Shown piece after piece: positions 5,986 to 39,760 of a stretch of DNA of 64,000 bases (position 1 is its first letter; each line of letters starts with the position of its first letter). The stretch comes from an uncultured Dehalococcoidia bacterium (GTDB lineage Bacteria > Chloroflexota > Dehalococcoidia > Lucifugimonadales > CAJWER01), in assembly GCA_964608025.1 (NCBI GenBank), contig CAZSLO010000007.1, forward strand, positions 14,825 to 78,824. Direction: 5' to 3'. Below the pieces are notes generated by a model, which saw nothing but the letters and a program-made list of their open reading frames with translations, searched no databases and was not told where the DNA came from. Position numbers and translations under genes: made by a program.

Positions 5986-7041
5986 TTAGGCTATCACTTC
6001 TATTTTTGGACCTTTGGCGGGGGCTTCTACAAGAATCTCACCTACAACTGCGGCACTGTTTACTCCACTAATTCTCAATGTATCGATCAACTTATCAACC
6101 TTGGATGGATCGATGCTGATAAGCAATCCTCCAGAAGTCTGGGCATCACAGAGTAAAAGTTTATCCTGCTTTCCCAGGAGTGCATCCCACTTAACATGTG
6201 GATCAGCCGAAACTAAATTACGATTTGTCCCACCAGGAACAATATCTTTTTCCAAAAGTTCTAAACATCCTTCTAGAACCGGAACTGCTTGACAAGATAT
6301 TCTCGCAGAGACTGCACTTGCATTAACCAGTTCCAGTAAATGACCTATTAGTCCAAAGCCAGTTACGTCTACACATCCACTAGCACCCACTTCTAGCATA
6401 GCGTGCGATGCCTCACGGTTAAGGTTCCTCATATACTCGACAGCATTAATGATGATCTCGGGTCGAATTTCGGATTGTTTTGCAGCTGTTGTTATTATCC
6501 CCGTACCAATGGGCTTCGTAAGAATAAGTTTGTCTCCCGGCCTTGCGCCGGCGTTTGTGACCTCTGATTTTGGTTCAATCAGACCAGTTACCGCCATACC
6601 AAACTTGGGTTCCTCATCTTCAATTGTGTGTCCACCTACAATAATCACACCTGCCTCAGTAGCCTTTGAAGAAGCTCCTTTCATGATCTCTCCCAAGATT
6701 TCTATCGGCAAATCTGATGGGAACGCAACTATGTTCAAACCAAGTATAGGCGTCCCGCCCATAGCGTAAACATCCGATACCGCATTAGCCACAGCAATCT
6801 CACCATACGTGAACGGATCGTCCACAATAGGTGGGAAGAAATCGACCGTCTGTACGATAGCTAACTCATCAGTTAGCTTATATACAGCCGCATCGTCACC
6901 CGTAGCAAAACCTACCAGGAGATTCGGATCTGATACTTGGGGCAGCTGGCGCAAGACCTGCGCCAGGTCATCTGGACTTAATTTACCTGTTCAACCTGCA
7001 CAACGTGCAAGAGATGTCAGGCGAACCGGTTGATGCACCAT
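5986..7041 (-). CDS. selD: Selenide, water dikinase (selenophosphate synthetase), selenocysteine-containing form
   Basis: The track ORF (5986..6954) is a SelD lacking its N-terminal active-site loop. Reading upstream in the same frame gives ATG(7041)-MVHQPVRLTSLARCAG-TGA(6993..6991)-TGKLSPDDLAQVLRQLPQV, i.e. the G-x-G-[C/U]-x-x-K-[IL]-S-P loop with TGA at the E. coli Cys17 position. GGAGGA lies 8 nt upstream of the ATG. The total of 351 aa is a normal SelD length. Confidence 0.85.
6946..6966 (-). promoter_or_regulatory. SECIS-like hairpin downstream of the selD UGA
   Basis: Minus strand CUGGCGCA-GGUCU-UGCGCCAG: a perfect 8-bp stem with a GGUCU apical loop, starting 24 nt after the UGA. As I recall, the loop and closing pairs (GCAGGUCUUGC) resemble the E. 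coli fdhF SECIS apex (GCAGGUCUGC). Confidence 0.55.
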
Positions 7042-7144: not shown

Positions 7145-7804
7145 ATGAGAATTAAATACAAATTGATAATTGGACTACTGGCATTCACGATCCCGACCGT
7201 AGTTGCCTGTGTTAAACATACCGAAACTCCAGAGGTTCAAGCTCATATCGAGTATGCAAATGGATCAAAATTACAGGATCTAGGAAGCCTCCAGAAGGCA
7301 GGTAACGCTTATTCCAAGGCAATCTCATTGGATCCTAGTTTCGCGGCTGCATATGTAGGACGTGGATATGTCTATCTTGCACACCAGAACCTTGCGTCCG
7401 CCCTCAGGGATTTCGACAAAGCGATCGATCTAGACCCTAATTTATCAGAGGCATACAACTACCGAGGATTGGTGTCCATAGGACTGTCTGATCCAGAACA
7501 GGCAATGCTTGATTTCACCAAAGCAATTGAGATAAATCCCCGGTTTGCTGATACCTACATTAATCGAGCCAGGCTCTATTTTCACCAACGTGATCTCTAC
7601 AGTGCAATCGAAGATATGACCATGGCAATACGGGAAGAACCAGGAAAACCACAATACTACATGGAACGTGCCCAAATTCACCTATTCAACCAAGATATAT
7701 CTGCAGCTACAATAGACCTAGAACAAGTTTTATCACTTACCAAAGATCCTGAAGTGGAACTGGAAGTAAAACGTCAACTAACTCGGATTGGGACTCTCAA
7801 TTGA
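7145..7804 (+). CDS. TPR-repeat lipoprotein
   Basis: Signal peptide with Cys (LLAFTIPTVVAC). Several TPR units follow (AYVGRGYVYL, ALRDFDKAIDLDP, AYNYRGLV, DFTKAIEINP). Confidence 0.75.
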   Translation: MRIKYKLIIGLLAFTIPTVVACVKHTETPEVQAHIEYANGSKLQDLGSLQKAGNAYSKAISLDPSFAAAYVGRGYVYLAHQNLASALRDFDKAIDLDPNLSEAYNYRGLVSIGLSDPEQAMLDFTKAIEINPRFADTYINRARLYFHQRDLYSAIEDMTMAIREEPGKPQYYMERAQIHLFNQDISAATIDLEQVLSLTKDPEVELEVKRQLTRIGTLN

Positions 7805-7968
7805 AAGAAACACAATAGTCCTTTACAAAAAATTTGGACCAGCTCCCTAAAACTCCAGTATATTCAGGCTTCGATCTCACCAACTGGTTCACAACACCAG
7901 TTCAAATAACACAATTAAACAGCTCCCTGTTTGACGTCTCTTCATATAGCTAGATATAGTGATCCTTC

Positions 7969-9258
7969 ATGGCTGGGCTGGACCAGGAACCGAACGAGGT
8001 AGTCGCGTTGCAAAAAAAGGACGCCGGCGCTCTGAGCGACACCACATGGCTAATTCTGATGTCGCTCATGCTTTTCTTACTCCTTTTACCAATATCAAGC
8101 TACGTGGCAGCCCTATCCCTGATAAAACAAGAATGGACACTAAGTAACACCGCGGCCGGCGCCATATACTCAGCCTACCTGGCAGGGTACGTACTTTCAG
8201 CTCTACTTGTAATTCCGCTAACTGACCGAATTGGACCTCGAAATATTCTCCTCGGATCCGCCGTATTATCGATCTTTACCCACATTATGTTCCCGATTTT
8301 TGCCGATGACATATTGATTGCTGTTTTCCTTAGAGCAGCGGCTGGAGTAGGCCTTGTAGGTATCTATATGCCGGGGCTCCGATTGATCGCAGACCGGTTC
8401 AGAGGCAACCGACGTGGTATGGCCATGGGCCTTTATGTAACTGCCCAATACGCAGCAAATAGCTGCTCCCTGGCACTTACAGGTCTACTCATGAATACAT
8501 TTGAATGGAGAGATGCGTATTTATTTGTCGCAATTGGAGCTGTCACCGGAATTCCTTTAGCAATACTTTTGCTCAGGAACCATGGCCAATCAACCCAAGG
8601 CATATCAGGCCGGCTCAACATGTCTGTATTTAGCAATGCTTCGGCCCGTTACCTGATCTTGGGGTACTCCCTCCACGCACTACAACTTTTTGCGGCGCGT
8701 GTCTGGTTACCAGTTTTTCTGGTCGGAGTTCTTATCGGTAAAGGGATTGATCCCGCAAAGGCGACTGTCGATGGGGCAACGATTGGTGGACTCGCATTGC
8801 TCGCCGGATCTGTCGGGCCTTTCATGGGTGGAGCCATCTCAGACAGATGGGGGCGATCAACATCAGCATCGCTGATCTTCGGACTAAGCGGTGGATGTGC
8901 ATTTATTATTGGCTGGACAACCGGATTACCTCTCGGTCTTATTTTCGGACTCAGTGTCATTTACGGGTGGGCTATTGCCGCAGACTCTGCCATATATTCA
9001 ACCGGAATAGTAGAAGTATCTTTACCCTCTACCCTAGGATCCACAATGGCTGTACAAGCATCTATAGGACTTCTTGGAGGGGTAGTAGGACCTATTATGT
9101 TTGGGGGCATCCTAGACATCTCGCCAAATGGTCTCGATTGGCCGATAGCATTCTCATCTCTTGGGTTATTAGCAATTGTCGCGATATGTGGAATGCAACG
9201 AATCCGCTATCTACCTCAAAATAACCTTTTGAAAGAATACGAAAACAATCCAACATAG
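7969..9258 (+). CDS. MFS transporter
   Basis: 429 aa with about 12 hydrophobic helices. It has the MFS loop motif LTDRIGPRN between TM2 and TM3 and a second-half repeat ISDRWGR. Confidence 0.8.
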   Translation: MAGLDQEPNEVVALQKKDAGALSDTTWLILMSLMLFLLLLPISSYVAALSLIKQEWTLSNTAAGAIYSAYLAGYVLSALLVIPLTDRIGPRNILLGSAVLSIFTHIMFPIFADDILIAVFLRAAAGVGLVGIYMPGLRLIADRFRGNRRGMAMGLYVTAQYAANSCSLALTGLLMNTFEWRDAYLFVAIGAVTGIPLAILLLRNHGQSTQGISGRLNMSVFSNASARYLILGYSLHALQLFAARVWLPVFLVGVLIGKGIDPAKATVDGATIGGLALLAGSVGPFMGGAISDRWGRSTSASLIFGLSGGCAFIIGWTTGLPLGLIFGLSVIYGWAIAADSAIYSTGIVEVSLPSTLGSTMAVQASIGLLGGVVGPIMFGGILDISPNGLDWPIAFSSLGLLAIVAICGMQRIRYLPQNNLLKEYENNPT

Positions 9259-9287
9259 ACAGGATCAATTATCTAGAAGGGGAAAAA

Positions 9288-9728
9288 TTGTCAAAAATTA
9301 CAGTTAAAAGCCTAGGTGACATGCAACAACTAGTCGTGACCACCAACCACACCTTCATAGCAGATGAATCAACAAGTGAGGATAATGGCCAAGGTCCAGA
9401 TCCCTATGAACTACTTCTGGCCTCCCTTGGGACTTGAACGGCAATGACAATCCTCCTGTATTCTCGGAGGAATGAATGGCCGGTTGAGAGCGTGACTATC
9501 GAGTGCAGCTATCGCCGTGTCAAAAATAGTGAACCACCCACTGGTGGATCGAATATCGAACCTATAGAAGAAATACATAGTAAAATTACTCTCAGCGGGG
9601 ATCTTTCGAACGATCAGAGGGATCGTCTCGCATACATAGCTGGGAAGTGTCCAATCCAGCGCACTCTCGAATCGAAACCTCGTATGATTAAAGAGATAAA
9701 TGTAGTCCAAACAGAGGAAAGCAAATGA
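9288..9728 (+). CDS. OsmC/Ohr-family peroxiredoxin-like protein with in-frame UGA (predicted selenoprotein)
   Basis: The track ORF 9444..9728 is only the C-terminal two-thirds of an OsmC fold (GKCPIQRTL carries the resolving Cys). The same frame is open upstream: TTG(9288)-SKITVKSLGDMQQLVVTTNHTFIADESTSEDNGQGPDPYELLLASLGT-TGA(9435..9437)-TAMTILLY. The TGA sits exactly where the family has the peroxidatic Cys (P.ELLL.AL..C....). Full length is 146 aa. Confidence 0.75.
9451..9471 (+). promoter_or_regulatory. Candidate SECIS hairpin downstream of the OsmC-like UGA
   Basis: UCCUCC-UGUAUUCUC-GGAGGA: a 6-bp stem starting 13 nt after the UGA. It is weaker than the selD element (no GGUC loop). Confidence 0.35.
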
Positions 9729-10504
9729 ATCAACGTGTTCCAATCCTAGTCTATCACCACGTATATAGGGATGATGATCCTGACCTCAACGGGCCCACCG
9801 GTAATAAAGCTACTGGCAAGATCTCCGAGTCAGAGTTTCGCAGTCACATTTCTTACCTTGCGGAGGGTGGCTGGCAAGTGGTATCAACTACAGATGTGGT
9901 AGATTGGATCGAATATGATAAGCCATTGCCCAAGAAGGCAGTGGTACTACATTTCGACAACGGTTGGCTCGACACCTGGTCGATTTCGATGCCTATCCTG
10001 CGAGATCTAGGAATGACAGGCACTTGCTACGTTATCAGTGAAGGAACAGAAGCAGCCAGCCATGGACTCCCGGCAGCGATCCGCACATCCACAGAAGGGG
10101 CAGTACAAAAAACCTGTATCACATGGCAACAGACTGAAGAACTTCTCGTGGAAGGTTGGGAAATAGGGGCTCATACTGCAACCCATCCTAAACTAGTTGT
10201 GGTCCAGGAAAAAAACGGGGACGAAGCAGTATTGGAAGAGATTAATAGGTCAAATAAAGCCTACGAGGCCAACCTGGGTTTTGTTCCCAAGCATTTTGCA
10301 TACCCCAGTGGATCTCGTAATTATCGAACAGACTCCCTCCTAAAACCCATATATAAATCACTGAGACTCTGGAACTTTAGTAATCCACCAAAATGGTCAT
10401 TTACTAACAAGGCTACTTCACCTCATGCACTTGAATGTCAGAATATCGATAACACTGTCCAGTACAGGGATTTCACACGTATATTCGAAGAGGCAGTTAC
10501 CTAG
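9725..10504 (+). CDS. Polysaccharide deacetylase (NodB-homology) family protein
   Basis: PILVYHHV, HFDNGW and GAHTATHP match NodB-domain motifs. The start forms an ATGA overlap with the OsmC-like stop. Confidence 0.7.
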   Translation: MNQRVPILVYHHVYRDDDPDLNGPTGNKATGKISESEFRSHISYLAEGGWQVVSTTDVVDWIEYDKPLPKKAVVLHFDNGWLDTWSISMPILRDLGMTGTCYVISEGTEAASHGLPAAIRTSTEGAVQKTCITWQQTEELLVEGWEIGAHTATHPKLVVVQEKNGDEAVLEEINRSNKAYEANLGFVPKHFAYPSGSRNYRTDSLLKPIYKSLRLWNFSNPPKWSFTNKATSPHALECQNIDNTVQYRDFTRIFEEAVT

Positions 10505-10596
10505 ACCCATCAGCTATATATATGTAACCGCTGGTTAACCTTACTGTACCCAGAAGGAAGATATAGACCAATCCCAACTAACTTAAAATCAAGTTT

Positions 10597-11100
10597 CTAG
10601 GTATACTGGCCAAACCCCAGTGCACGCCAGTCCAAAAGTATCTGGTTATCGTTAGGGAACGGGAGTGGGGGCAGATCATCAGCATCAAAGAGTGCTACCT
10701 CAGACGCATCGTGCCCAGCATTAAGATGTCCTCCAATGACTACTGCATGGTAAACAACAAGTATTACCGGACTACCTGTCTGAGAATAAACACCTATTAG
10801 TCCTTCTGTCCGAACATCGAGGCCAGTCTCCTCCTTGACTTCCCTGATAGCCCCATCTTCCACAGCCTCACCTCGGTCAACGAATCCGGACGGAAAAGAC
10901 CAGGACCCCAATGCTGGCTCGACCCCTCGTTTAACCATTACCAGTCTCCGGTCAATAGATACTAGTACCACCGCAGCGACCTTAGGATCGAGAAAGATTC
11001 TTCGACCACATTCACCACAGGATAAGTGCGACATCCCGTCGATCATCGTACTAACGAGTCTACCGCCACAAGACTGGCAAAAGTTCATTTCATTTGACAT
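10597..11100 (-). CDS. NUDIX hydrolase with N-terminal zinc ribbon
   Basis: CQSCGGRL...CGECGR zinc ribbon, followed by a Nudix box GSWSFPSGFVDRGEAVEDGAIREVKEETG. The start is taken at the internal Met (MSNEMNF); the track ORF extends to 11169. Confidence 0.8.
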   Translation of the reverse strand: MSNEMNFCQSCGGRLVSTMIDGMSHLSCGECGRRIFLDPKVAAVVLVSIDRRLVMVKRGVEPALGSWSFPSGFVDRGEAVEDGAIREVKEETGLDVRTEGLIGVYSQTGSPVILVVYHAVVIGGHLNAGHDASEVALFDADDLPPLPFPNDNQILLDWRALGFGQYT

Positions 11101-11238
11101 TCTAAACCGCCATTCCACCAAGCTTAACGGTGAAAGTATAAAAGGTATAGATGCGAAGCATTTGACCACAGTTTAATCGCATCTCTATAATCGAGCAGCT
11201 TCAAACCCAATATAAGAACAAACATAAGAGGTGACAAA

Positions 11239-12000
11239 TTGGCCGAACTTAGACCTAACAGGGTGAAGCGTAAGCTGGAAGACGGCGACGTAGCCCTAAT
11301 TGTACAAGGTGAACTCACTCCAGACATGGTCGAATTACTTGGCCCAATTGGATTCGATGGCATTTGGATAGAAGGAGAACATGGGCCGGTTGATTTCGCA
11401 GATATTCGCGATTTCACCAGGGCCGCAGATCTTTGGGGACTGACTTCCGTAGCTCGTGTCAACCTCAATATCCCCGGTGTAATCTACCGTACACTCGACC
11501 AGGGAGCACAGGCAGTAGTTGTACCTCACATCAATACAGCAGCTGAGGCAAGCGCCGTGCTGGATGCAGCCAAGTTCGCTCCAATAGGCTCACGAGGATC
11601 ATATATGAGCCGACAAGGGATTGGGGTCGAAGACTACTATATTAAAGCCAACGACGAAACGATGACAATGATCCTGATCGAAGATATCATCGCGGTTAAT
11701 AATCTTGAAGAGATACTTGCTGTTGACATTGACGTTTTTTATGTTGCACCAGGAGATTTAGCACAAAGCATGGGATATCCTGGCCAACATACCCACCCAG
11801 ACGTCCAACAGACCGTGGACAAAACCATCGCAAGAATAATAGAAGCAGGGAGAGTTGCGGGTGCTTTAGCTACGGATGGCTCTGTTGAAGACTACGTAGA
11901 CAAGGGGGCCCGCCTCATCTCTACTAGCTACAACCAATGGCTCACATCCGGTGCCGAATCTTACCTCGGCAAAGCCAAGACTGCGATCAGTAAACGCTGA
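11239..12000 (+). CDS. HpcH/HpaI-family class II aldolase
   Basis: 253 aa. The GFDGIWIEGEHGP, RVN and VVPHINTAAEA pattern is typical of 2,4-dihydroxyhept-2-enedioate / 2-keto-3-deoxy-sugar-acid aldolases. Confidence 0.8.
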   Translation: MAELRPNRVKRKLEDGDVALIVQGELTPDMVELLGPIGFDGIWIEGEHGPVDFADIRDFTRAADLWGLTSVARVNLNIPGVIYRTLDQGAQAVVVPHINTAAEASAVLDAAKFAPIGSRGSYMSRQGIGVEDYYIKANDETMTMILIEDIIAVNNLEEILAVDIDVFYVAPGDLAQSMGYPGQHTHPDVQQTVDKTIARIIEAGRVAGALATDGSVEDYVDKGARLISTSYNQWLTSGAESYLGKAKTAISKR

Positions 12001-36404: not shown

Positions 36405-37760
36405 ATGTTAAACGCCGGTACATTTGCCTTAAATATCACCCCTGACCGCCCCCTCTACCTTCAAGGCTATGGGAATCGAACACACCCCTCAACGGGTAAT
36501 TTGGATCCACTGGAAGCCCGAGTAATCGTATTCGACGACGGCACTACACAGGCAGCAATTATATCAGTGGATCTGATTGGACTTGATGCCACATCGGTAA
36601 CTCGAATTCGTAAGGCAGCGGCATTAGCCAGTCCCGTTCCCGAGGAAAATGTGATGGTTGTCTGCTCACACACCCACTCAGGCCCAGCTGTGCAAACCCT
36701 TGGTGATTCTCCAGTCGACAAGGCGTACATCCACTGGCTTGAACAAGCACTTGGAAGTGCTGTCGGAGAAGCTTCGAATTCAATGGTGCCGGTGACCCTT
36801 GCAGTAGGAGAAGGCTCTGTCAAATTCAACGTGAACAGGAGGCTACGCCGATCAGACGGTTCAGTAGGGGGACCCAATCCATTTGGAGCCGTCGACCACC
36901 GGGTCCGCGTATTGCGACTTGACCCAGCATCTGTACCTTCGGATGCCGGAGGCCTCGGTAATACAAATCTACCGAAAGTAGATCCAGTGGCTATCTTATT
37001 CTCTTTCGCTTGCCACCCCACGGTTCTAATGGGCAGCAATTACAGATACAGTAGTGACTACCCGGGTTCTGCCAGGCGTTTCATAGAAACTGCATATGGT
37101 GGGAAAGGTTTCATAGCCACCTTCCTACCGGGATGTTTCGGCAATATTCGACCTCACCTGGTGACACCCGACGGTGCCTTCAGATCCGGTACGGACCATG
37201 AGCTTACAGTCCTCGGACGTATACTTGGAACTGAGGTTGTCCAGGTTGCAGAGGGTTTGATCGGAGACCCTGTCGATGACATAGCCATGGGAAGTCGCAA
37301 AATTAGCCTGCCATATTCCCACGTACCCAGCGAGACTGAGCTGATGGCAGTGCCACCAGATGATAAACGCCGTCGCTGGTGGGCCGATAATCTTCTAGAC
37401 GAAATCAAGAGGAACGGACACCTTCGTGATCATGATACAGGGGAAGTTACCGTACTCCGAATCGGTAGCCATTGGATCGCTACAACGCCTGGAGAAACAC
37501 TGATTGAGATCGGATGGTCAATTGAAAGCGGTCTTGCAGAACTTGGTATCGCTAAACCTGCAGATGGAGACATGACATTAGCGCTGGGATACTCCAATGG
37601 AAACTCCGGTTACTTGTGTACCAGTTCTGCTATCCAAGAGGGTGGTTATGAGCCAGCCAAAGCTTATTTTTACTACCTGCATCCAGGACCCTTTGCGCCA
37701 GAGATAGAACAAATTCTCACGAGCACTGTCCTGGATCTTGCGAAAGGGTTAACCAATTGA
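36405..37760 (+). CDS. Neutral/alkaline ceramidase-like hydrolase
   Basis: LQGYGNR...L.ARVIVFDDG...ISVDLIG...NVMVVCSHTHSGP reproduces the neutral-ceramidase N-terminal zinc-site block (..SATHTHSGP..). Confidence 0.65.
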   Translation: MLNAGTFALNITPDRPLYLQGYGNRTHPSTGNLDPLEARVIVFDDGTTQAAIISVDLIGLDATSVTRIRKAAALASPVPEENVMVVCSHTHSGPAVQTLGDSPVDKAYIHWLEQALGSAVGEASNSMVPVTLAVGEGSVKFNVNRRLRRSDGSVGGPNPFGAVDHRVRVLRLDPASVPSDAGGLGNTNLPKVDPVAILFSFACHPTVLMGSNYRYSSDYPGSARRFIETAYGGKGFIATFLPGCFGNIRPHLVTPDGAFRSGTDHELTVLGRILGTEVVQVAEGLIGDPVDDIAMGSRKISLPYSHVPSETELMAVPPDDKRRRWWADNLLDEIKRNGHLRDHDTGEVTVLRIGSHWIATTPGETLIEIGWSIESGLAELGIAKPADGDMTLALGYSNGNSGYLCTSSAIQEGGYEPAKAYFYYLHPGPFAPEIEQILTSTVLDLAKGLTN

Positions 37761-39760
37761 ATATCCCAAGGAACGAGATCGATTCTTCACTGGAAATTCT
37801 GCTCCGCTACGAAAATAAAATGGAACCTCACTTGCAAGCTAGTCCAGCTTTACTTATAGACCTGGCTGACGAAAATAATTCCCCTTGGAAACAGTTTCTT
37901 TTATCAAATGACGGTTTAGCGATAACAATTGAACAGGCCCTGAAAATATCGAGACAAGAAGCTGTGACACCTCTGAAAACCATAGCTTCTACAAAAGTCC
38001 TAGTCGAAAAATTCGAATCCTCCTTGCAATCCAATTCCATATTGGAACTCCAAGCCTATGTGGGGTCCCGGTCATATATACCTGCTTACGTCAGATCTAG
38101 ATCGGATATTAAGGCTACTACTGGGGAAATAGACACTTCTCTCGCAATCACAGCAATAGCCAAGGAATGGCATCATTTAGGCACAGAAAATGCATTCAAG
38201 GACTGGCCACATGGGATAGAGCAACACTGGTATGAATTTCTTATCAATGGCGGAATTTCAGCGGAATCTGCGAGGTGCGTGCCGAACCAAATAAGGGATG
38301 CCGTGACTAGCCTCGTGGATTACCATGCATCCCAGATGTACGCACAACCTGTGCCAGAAGCTGATGTTATAGAACGATACAAATTCGTTTTCACTGCTCC
38401 CGATATAAAGACAGCGCTCAAGACTGTACTCGATACCTATGCGATTCGGCTTCGCATAGATCCTGAGCAGATAGAGCCATTTTTACGAAACCTGTCGCCA
38501 AAAGAAATACTGGAACGTTTCCGGAAGATAAGAGACTGGATGGGAACTGTCTACATATACGACATGGTGATAACGACTAAGCTGGCAGAGTACCTTTCAC
38601 AACCCGGTGACTTTGATCCTCTTCTAACAGAGATCGATAGGCTGTCTAAAGAGACAACAAAAGGGAATTTCCGTCCGGACAATCCCCTACAACGAGACAT
38701 TGAATTCCGTCGATTTCTAAATGAATACACAAAACATAACGCCGTAAACAAGAGATTGCCTTACCTAAACGAACCGAGCCGGGCACTATACGGGAAGTTC
38801 GAGCAACTTCAATTGCTACCTCCACAAGAGGATGAAAATCCTACGCTATCAGCTGAACATAGACATGAAGCCAAGCGTGTGGCCTACGAGGCAAATGAAC
38901 TACTATCCTTTCTAAAACGAATGCGTGAATGTACAGATAGAACCATCGTTGTCGTGGGCAACGATCGGTATGGACGACAATGGATTGTAGAACCGTTGGA
39001 AGATTTTCTCGATGATGGTTTCGTACTCAGGTACGATCGTTCACCATCGCATATGTCCACCCCGCTGGACGTCGGAAGGTCTAGACAAAGTGAGATTAAT
39101 CTCGATGATAGAGGGCCCTGGACATCGGATATCTTCCCACGTGAGTTTGTGCGATGGCTTGGAAAAGTCATGCCCCACGTGGTTATCGCAGATACAATGA
39201 GCCCCAACAAGAATAGTGAAGGGCTAATGCGAATACCGAGATCTAACCACTCTTATGCGAACTGGTTTATCGCATTCAATGATGTCAGAACAGATGGCAA
39301 CTTCCAGTCATTCGCCAACAATACATTTCTCCCCAAGAACCACTTAGAGGAAGTTGTTAAATGGCATGAGTACGTTGGACTACGCCGCCAGCTACTAGAC
39401 TGGATCGACCGTGGTGAGACCTACAGAATGGCGACCTGGTCACCTGAACCTACCGAAATGGTTAAATTCGGCGAGAGTGTAGTCCCATACATAGAACCAA
39501 AATTAACTGGCGACCGACCAATGGTAGTATTCGCAAACCCAGTCTACTACAACCCTGAGAACCTTCCAGAAGAAATCTCTGACACAAACGCATATTATTT
39601 TGACGGTCCCGAGCGTATAGTCCAAGAAGAAATTCTACTTGGTTTCGGGAATCACGGCTTCGAGACCAGATTGAAGGGCACTACTACAGCGCAATTCGTT
39701 AGTGCTGTCCAGGGCGAGATCACGACACAAATATCCAAGAGTTTTCACCAAAAGGGTTGA
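37757..39760 (+). CDS. Large hypothetical protein (667 aa), no family recognised
   Basis: Long uninterrupted ORF with no signal peptide or TM helix. The TTG start overlaps the ceramidase-like stop (TTGA); an alternative start is the Met at MEPHLQ. The C-terminal half alternates hydrophobic strand-like runs (TIVVVGND, HVVIADTM, MVVFANP). Confidence 0.6.
   Translation: MNIPRNEIDSSLEILLRYENKMEPHLQASPALLIDLADENNSPWKQFLLSNDGLAITIEQALKISRQEAVTPLKTIASTKVLVEKFESSLQSNSILELQAYVGSRSYIPAYVRSRSDIKATTGEIDTSLAITAIAKEWHHLGTENAFKDWPHGIEQHWYEFLINGGISAESARCVPNQIRDAVTSLVDYHASQMYAQPVPEADVIERYKFVFTAPDIKTALKTVLDTYAIRLRIDPEQIEPFLRNLSPKEILERFRKIRDWMGTVYIYDMVITTKLAEYLSQPGDFDPLLTEIDRLSKETTKGNFRPDNPLQRDIEFRRFLNEYTKHNAVNKRLPYLNEPSRALYGKFEQLQLLPPQEDENPTLSAEHRHEAKRVAYEANELLSFLKRMRECTDRTIVVVGNDRYGRQWIVEPLEDFLDDGFVLRYDRSPSHMSTPLDVGRSRQSEINLDDRGPWTSDIFPREFVRWLGKVMPHVVIADTMSPNKNSEGLMRIPRSNHSYANWFIAFNDVRTDGNFQSFANNTFLPKNHLEEVVKWHEYVGLRRQLLDWIDRGETYRMATWSPEPTEMVKFGESVVPYIEPKLTGDRPMVVFANPVYYNPENLPEEISDTNAYYFDGPERIVQEEILLGFGNHGFETRLKGTTTAQFVSAVQGEITTQISKSFHQKG

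Follow-up and report, generated by a model that had tools for sequence, protein, structure and literature searches.

The gene at 9288-9728 of the window (the whole stretch of Dehalococcoidia DNA that was analysed, 64,000 nucleotides in length) very probably encodes a full-length, 146-residue redox protein of the OsmC/YhfA type in which the in-frame UGA at 9435-9437 is decoded as selenocysteine (Sec50). We place the probability of this reading at roughly 0.9. The UGA forms a Sec/Cys pair with the first conserved cysteine of homologous proteins, it is conserved among relatives, the coding sequence is under purifying selection on both of its sides, a SECIS-like structure follows it, and the fold is that of OsmC. 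The gene and its immediate surroundings comprise the following features.

9277..9282, plus strand: Shine-Dalgarno-like AAGGGG, read from the sequence, with the TTG start 5 nt downstream.
9288..9728, plus strand: complete coding sequence of the predicted OsmC-like selenoprotein, 146 codons including Sec50, then a TGA stop.
9435..9437, plus strand: predicted Sec-encoding UGA, codon 50, aligned with Cys in homologues.
9648..9650, plus strand: Cys121 (TGT), the presumed resolving cysteine, within GKCPIQRTL and present in 80/80 genomes.
9725..10504, plus strand: polysaccharide-deacetylase-family gene (PF01522, E=9.5e-20).

The frame running from TTG 9288 to the TGA at 9726-9728 contains one internal in-frame TGA, at 9435-9437, and is free of other stops and of frameshifts. 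It translates as ...GQGPDPYELLLASLGT*TAMTILLYSRR...IAGKCPIQRTL..., and both sequence and translation bear out an earlier note on this DNA, which had described an open frame from this TTG with a UGA at that position and a retained second cysteine in GKCPIQRTL. The ORF as called spans only 9444-9728 and yields 94 aa. As a start codon, TTG 9288 is backed by relatives L003-L006, all of which have ATG at the corresponding codon. The length of 146 aa, which the note had considered typical of the family, falls within the 130-155 aa of the full-length homologues (there is one outlier of 241 aa). The proposed coupling to a polysaccharide-deacetylase-family gene is likewise found, as the ATG at 9725 overlaps the TGA stop in the form ATGA and the downstream product matches PF01522. 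Adjacency of the two genes is kept in all relatives examined, with the 4-nt overlap in most. When window positions 7145-12000 were compared with the Dehalococcoidia relatives L001 (7764-12478) and L002 (426-4463), the gene order TPR, MFS, OsmC(U), deacetylase, NUDIX (on the minus strand) and HpcH/HpaI aldolase proved to be conserved to about 60% protein identity.

The identity of the residue that homologues carry at the UGA column is of particular importance. Among 5.8 billion proteins searched, 30 homologues emerged, 25 of them full-length, and every one of these 25 has Cys at the column, within the motif LG[TAS]C[TIV]xxT. For the five homologues most similar to the window protein (61-97% identical), the annotation gives proteins of 87-94 aa with the Met two codons past the UGA as their start. 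In the DNA, each of the five contigs has the same in-frame TGA, and upstream of it lies a conserved block of 49-50 codons that is called as a separate small ORF. The earlier note had reasoned that homologues consistently starting at the downstream Met and lacking the N-terminal segment, or a want of Cys-aligned homologues, would speak for a disrupted gene. Homologues annotated with that start do exist, these five, but their DNA holds the TGA together with a selected N-terminal segment.

A scan of one genome per species, with a 7-sequence alignment as the query, gave 80 loci in which the codon at the column was assigned by alignment. This codon is TGC in 53 genomes, TGT in 14, TGA in 13 and nothing else in any, whereas the second cysteine is present in all 80. 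Thus the placement of the UGA at the conserved first Cys of the family, as originally proposed, holds on alignment to the Cys homologues (67/80 genomes with Cys, 13/80 with TGA), and Cys-aligned homologues are plentiful (67/80 genomes and 25/25 full-length database matches). All 13 TGA genomes are Dehalococcoidia/Chloroflexota MAGs. Altogether, the in-frame TGA is conserved in 18 Sec-form sequences, those of the window and 17 relatives, from independent assemblies, and the TGA-bearing relatives reach down to about 40% protein identity. The gene is mis-called as an ORF of 49-50 aa plus one of 87-94 aa, both in the window and in all public relatives examined. As a side observation, the aligned region of a few loci holds one surplus stop: there are two stops in the Sec form L021 (6001-6429), and each of five Cys forms (L039, L045, L056, L062 and L074) has one. 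These are probably natural stop codons within the C-terminal tail of the alignment.

Selection was compared on the two sides of the TGA in five lineages, the upstream part consisting of 49 codons. Comparisons of close lineages gave a dN/dS of 0.12-0.22 for the part before the TGA and of 0.16-0.39 for the part after it; for distant pairs, pS is about 0.8 (saturated) and pN about 0.25 on both sides. From the dN/dS and pN/pS values it follows that the codons before the UGA are translated in the same frame and selected for the protein they encode.

A stem-loop lies just downstream of the UGA, inside the coding sequence, and consists of the following parts.

9439..9482, plus strand: bSECIS-like stem-loop, MFE -17.4 kcal/mol.
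9439-9442 / 9479-9482, plus strand: lower stem.
9451-9456 / 9466-9471, plus strand: upper stem of 6 bp, UCCUCC / GGAGGA, beginning 13 nt after the UGA.
9457-9465, plus strand: apical loop of 9 nt starting UGU..., UGUAUUCUC.

[quoted passage not shown] The 6-bp hairpin that the earlier note had noticed 13 nt downstream of the UGA is indeed present as UCCUCC/GGAGGA and, between 9451 and 9471, agrees with the model in all four respects, having a 6-bp stem, a 9-nt loop, a 19-nt spacing and an MFE of -8.0 kcal/mol for the upper stem alone (-17.4 kcal/mol for the full element). Taken singly, the fold of the window hairpin is not significant (z = -1.16; 27/200 shuffles fold as well), and an Rfam scan of the window gave no match. 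Across relatives, the hairpin is highly non-random, though not in the window sequence alone. All 18 Sec forms have a stem-loop 13-17 nt past the UGA (mean MFE -19.8 kcal/mol, mean z -3.0), in contrast to the 67 Cys forms, which show no such fold (mean MFE -9.9 kcal/mol, mean z +0.2). The bSECIS criteria are passed by 17/18 Sec forms, with a spacing of 19-20 nt, versus 2/67 Cys forms. A Mann-Whitney test of folding in Sec versus Cys forms gives p ~1e-9, an optimistic value since the sequences are related yet counted as independent.

The codons that make up the stem also appear to be frozen. In the main clade of 15 sequences, Leu+6 is CTC in 15/15, Leu+7 is CTG in 15/15, Arg+10 is CGG in 14/15 and Arg+11 is AGG in 15/15, all of them at six-fold degenerate sites, while free variation is seen in the loop codons (+8 and +9) and in the Leu and Arg codons at other positions. 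Since the main-clade stem is invariant, no compensatory changes occur within that clade. A second group of Dehalococcoidia Sec forms, L023, L028 and L030, has hairpins of differing sequence. [quoted passage not shown]

Of the 47 long open frames in the window, 16 terminate in TGA, that of the OsmC gene itself among them, and therefore the genetic code is standard. Beyond the OsmC gene and selD, no further TGA-interrupted gene was found in the 64 kb. The selD locus has the following features.

5986..7041, minus strand: selD (selenide, water dikinase), itself Sec-containing, with ATG at 7041.
6993-6991, minus strand: TGA encoding Sec17 of SelD, N-terminus ...LARCAG-U-TGKLSPDDL.
6966-6946, minus strand: hairpin with an 8-bp stem and a GGUCU loop, 32 nt past the UGA.

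Read through, the selD product scores 381 bits on TIGR00476 (cutoff 125). The mechanical ORF begins at TTG 6954 and omits the catalytic N-terminus. The same TGA is found in the selD of the close relative L008. The presence of selD 2.4 kb away, which the earlier note had taken to be coherent with a Sec reading, is thereby confirmed at 7041-5986 on the minus strand, in a gene that is itself Sec-dependent. Adjacency to selD was considered as a functional link and rejected, as only L008, the closest relative, keeps it and L001, L002 and L013-L018 do not. The 64-kb window and the flanks of related loci yielded neither selA nor selB, and ARAGORN found no tRNA-Sec in the window or in 17 related loci. 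The ORF pair at 36405-37760 and 37757-39760 on the plus strand (451 and 667 aa) resembles selA and selB in size, but neither identity holds: for the first ORF there is only a weak ceramidase-like match, and for the second no match to any NCBIfam family. Counts of 46-49 selenoproteins have been recorded for Dehalococcoidia MAGs, which rank among the known bacteria richest in such proteins.

With U read as C, the window protein matches Pfam OsmC (PF02566) over aa 33-131, with 56.2 bits (gathering threshold 27.5) and E=4.8e-15, and the match therefore spans the UGA. Profile alignment to E. coli OsmC (the sequence used is identical to that of 1QWI) pairs U50 with Cys59, C121 with Cys125 and E41 with Glu50. 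An AlphaFold model of the Cys homologue P0004, which is 51% identical to the window protein, has a pLDDT of 82.5 and the OsmC topology: beta-1 to beta-3, alpha-1 (residues 39-61), beta-4, beta-5, a kinked alpha-2 and beta-6. In this model, the Sec/Cys column lies in the middle of alpha-1 and the second cysteine at the kink of alpha-2, so that the 94-aa ORF, as called, would have its start within a helix. Judged on the same model, that ORF is without beta-1 to beta-3, in keeping with the earlier view that it lacks the N-terminal part of the fold. A fold search with the P0004 model retrieved only OsmC/Ohr/YhfA structures, the top matches being of the YhfA type.

In Ohr and OsmC, the first cysteine is peroxidatic and the second resolving, with a lipoyl-dependent regeneration step. 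Both cysteines are also kept in the YhfA-type branch, an uncharacterised group from which the catalytic Arg and Glu of Ohr/OsmC are reportedly missing. The window protein belongs to this YhfA/COG1765-type branch. Its Glu41 is invariant and aligned with Glu50 of OsmC, although the equivalence to the catalytic Glu is uncertain, and no conserved Arg was seen in the N-terminal strands. The description of the lost residue as the peroxidatic cysteine is thus right as regards position, U50 being aligned with Cys59 of E. coli OsmC, but as regards function it draws on positional homology only. By homology and position, the window protein may be a peroxidase.

Several other explanations of the internal TGA deserve consideration. 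The TGA could be a true stop codon by which an ancestral OsmC gene with Cys was inactivated, leaving a nonsense-disrupted pseudogene, and gene callers do end a frame there and list the 94-aa ORF separately. The same TGA is nevertheless found at the same codon in 18 sequences down to about 40% protein identity, and the many independent assemblies from which the relatives' TGAs come argue against an assembly artefact. Purifying selection is equal on the two sides of the TGA, and since the upstream segment is selected like the downstream one, a pseudogene is excluded; the gene also lacks other stops and frameshifts, and the Sec forms share a hairpin of their own, conserved at the level of synonymous sites. 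The pseudogene reading is effectively refuted by this conservation, and we regard it as extremely improbable. It is also conceivable that the UGA ends a peptide of 49 aa and that the 94-aa ORF is translated separately from ATG 9444, giving two chains or a truncated OsmC domain. An in-frame ATG does stand two codons past the TGA, and public annotations list ORFs of 49-50 aa and 87-94 aa, but the Met in question is the conserved Met of the TAMT motif, which is found in the Cys forms too. Such a split would interrupt helix alpha-1 and remove the catalytic residue, and it would leave unexplained both a TGA that is always aligned to Cys and a frozen hairpin. A split gene is accordingly very unlikely.

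UGA has been reassigned in some bacterial lineages, and the codon could in principle stand here for one of the standard amino acids (Cys, Trp or Gly), through reassignment of the code or near-cognate suppression. Such lineages and the fact that no tRNA-Sec is seen in the window speak for this possibility. Against it, TGA serves as a regular stop in 16/47 long frames and as the stop of the OsmC gene itself, and only two genes in 64 kb have an internal TGA, in both cases at a catalytic Cys position. The hairpin moreover fits the bSECIS model and selD is present, so that insertion of a standard amino acid has, in our estimate, very little probability.

Decoding of the UGA as Sec could proceed as follows, by analogy with known bacterial selenoproteins. 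The hairpin, 19 nt downstream and within the coding sequence, would act as a bacterial SECIS, recruiting SelB and Sec-tRNA(Sec), such that the ribosome would insert Sec instead of terminating. Selenophosphate for Sec synthesis would be provided by SelD, encoded 2.4 kb away and itself dependent on Sec. In the folded protein, Sec50 would occupy the place of the peroxidatic Cys of OsmC/Ohr within the long helix alpha-1, and Cys121 that of the resolving Cys at the alpha-2 kink. The selenolate may then attack a hydroperoxide or a similar oxidant, Cys121 may resolve the resulting selenenic acid to a selenenylsulfide, and a dithiol reductant, possibly lipoyl-dependent as in OsmC/Ohr, may reduce the latter.

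OsmC-like selenoproteins have been catalogued before, with the motif UxxT: the 2005 survey of the Sargasso Sea contains 3 such sequences and the 2008 GOS survey 5, which bears out the statement of the earlier note that marine surveys had reported them. They are also listed in the Olavius symbiont study of 2007 and in reviews of 2022 and 2026. A Sargasso sequence, from that paper's supplement, reads ...AGIGF-U-LLTQL...QGCFAENL. The window protein shares with this family (NF041052) the superfamily (COG1765/PF02566), the catalytic column, the second Cys, a bSECIS just past the UGA and a marine bacterial origin. It differs in its motif, which is U-T-A-M-T (Thr at +1 and +4, Met at +3) against the U-L-L-T of the Sargasso protein and does not conform to UxxT, and at the second site, with GKCPIQRTL against QGCFAENL. 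The NF041052 model, which has a cutoff of 95 bits, gives 32.2 bits for the window protein, 48.1 for the L001 Sec form and 157.4 for the Sargasso protein; two close Cys forms score 36 and 63 bits. The best BLASTP segment between the window and Sargasso proteins has 25% identity over 57 residues, with U aligned to U. The Sargasso protein occupies a separate long branch in a rough neighbour-joining tree that carries no support values. The window protein is therefore of the same kind as the published OsmC-like selenoproteins, but it lies outside the curated family NF041052 and in a different clade.

Among solved structures, the OsmC domain of 9wo1 is nearest (E=1.3e-23 with the single sequence and 2.8e-53 with the profile), and it carries Cys at both redox positions. 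This domain and the homologues bearing 'LG(A/T/S)CTAMT...(R/K)CPVHRT' agree with the window protein in length, motifs and the two redox positions. 9wo1 and the Cys homologues, however, have Cys where the window has Sec and are without the downstream hairpin, and 9wo1, at 400 aa, has an additional region at its N-terminus. A literature search on this two-domain type of OsmC protein gave nothing useful. The best structural matches to the modelled homologue are E. coli YhfA (1ML8), 1LQL, 2PN2 and 2ONF, which have the two conserved cysteines; these YhfA-type structures are 18-24% identical in structural alignments and have no Sec. E. coli OsmC (1QWI) and Ohr have the same fold as the window protein, with redox positions that align with U50 and C121, and may, by analogy, share the two-step redox chemistry proposed above. 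Their identity to the window protein is about 20% or less, and the catalytic Arg is not evident in the latter. None of the NCBIfam OsmC and Ohr models was reached by the window protein.

The distribution of Sec and Cys forms has some bearing on the history of the gene. In the neighbour-joining tree (rough and without support values), the Dehalococcoidia Sec forms fall into two groups with Cys forms nested among them, namely L012 1539-1967 (P0004) and L032 at about 2072. This pattern suggests that Sec and Cys may have been switched repeatedly within the Dehalococcoidia. With about even odds, we propose that the Dehalococcoidia proteins constitute a second, uncatalogued lineage of OsmC-fold selenoproteins that would have acquired Sec independently of NF041052 though in the same catalytic column, with multiple Sec/Cys exchanges and with a SECIS remodelled from UCCUCC/GGAGGA to GCGGC/GCCGC while the 19-nt spacing was kept. 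If this is true, it would provide a natural series of Sec/Cys exchanges that could be used to work out the function of the YhfA-type OsmC proteins, with closely related Sec and Cys forms available for comparison. A second, distant branch of the OsmC fold with Sec at the catalytic position also supports a catalytic redox role in YhfA-type proteins, while knowledge of Sec decoding and of OsmC chemistry is unchanged by the finding. There is a practical consequence as well. NCBI's dedicated selenoprotein model (NF041052) misses the Dehalococcoidia clade and gene callers split its members, a systematic mis-calling in marine Dehalococcoidia, which are rich in selenoproteins. Widening the model would mend this systematic error.

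Finally, the species to which the window belongs seems to be missing from the species-representative genome set. The best match to the OsmC protein in that set is only 60% identical, and contigs from TARA and other marine metagenomes encode proteins with 87-97% identity to it.
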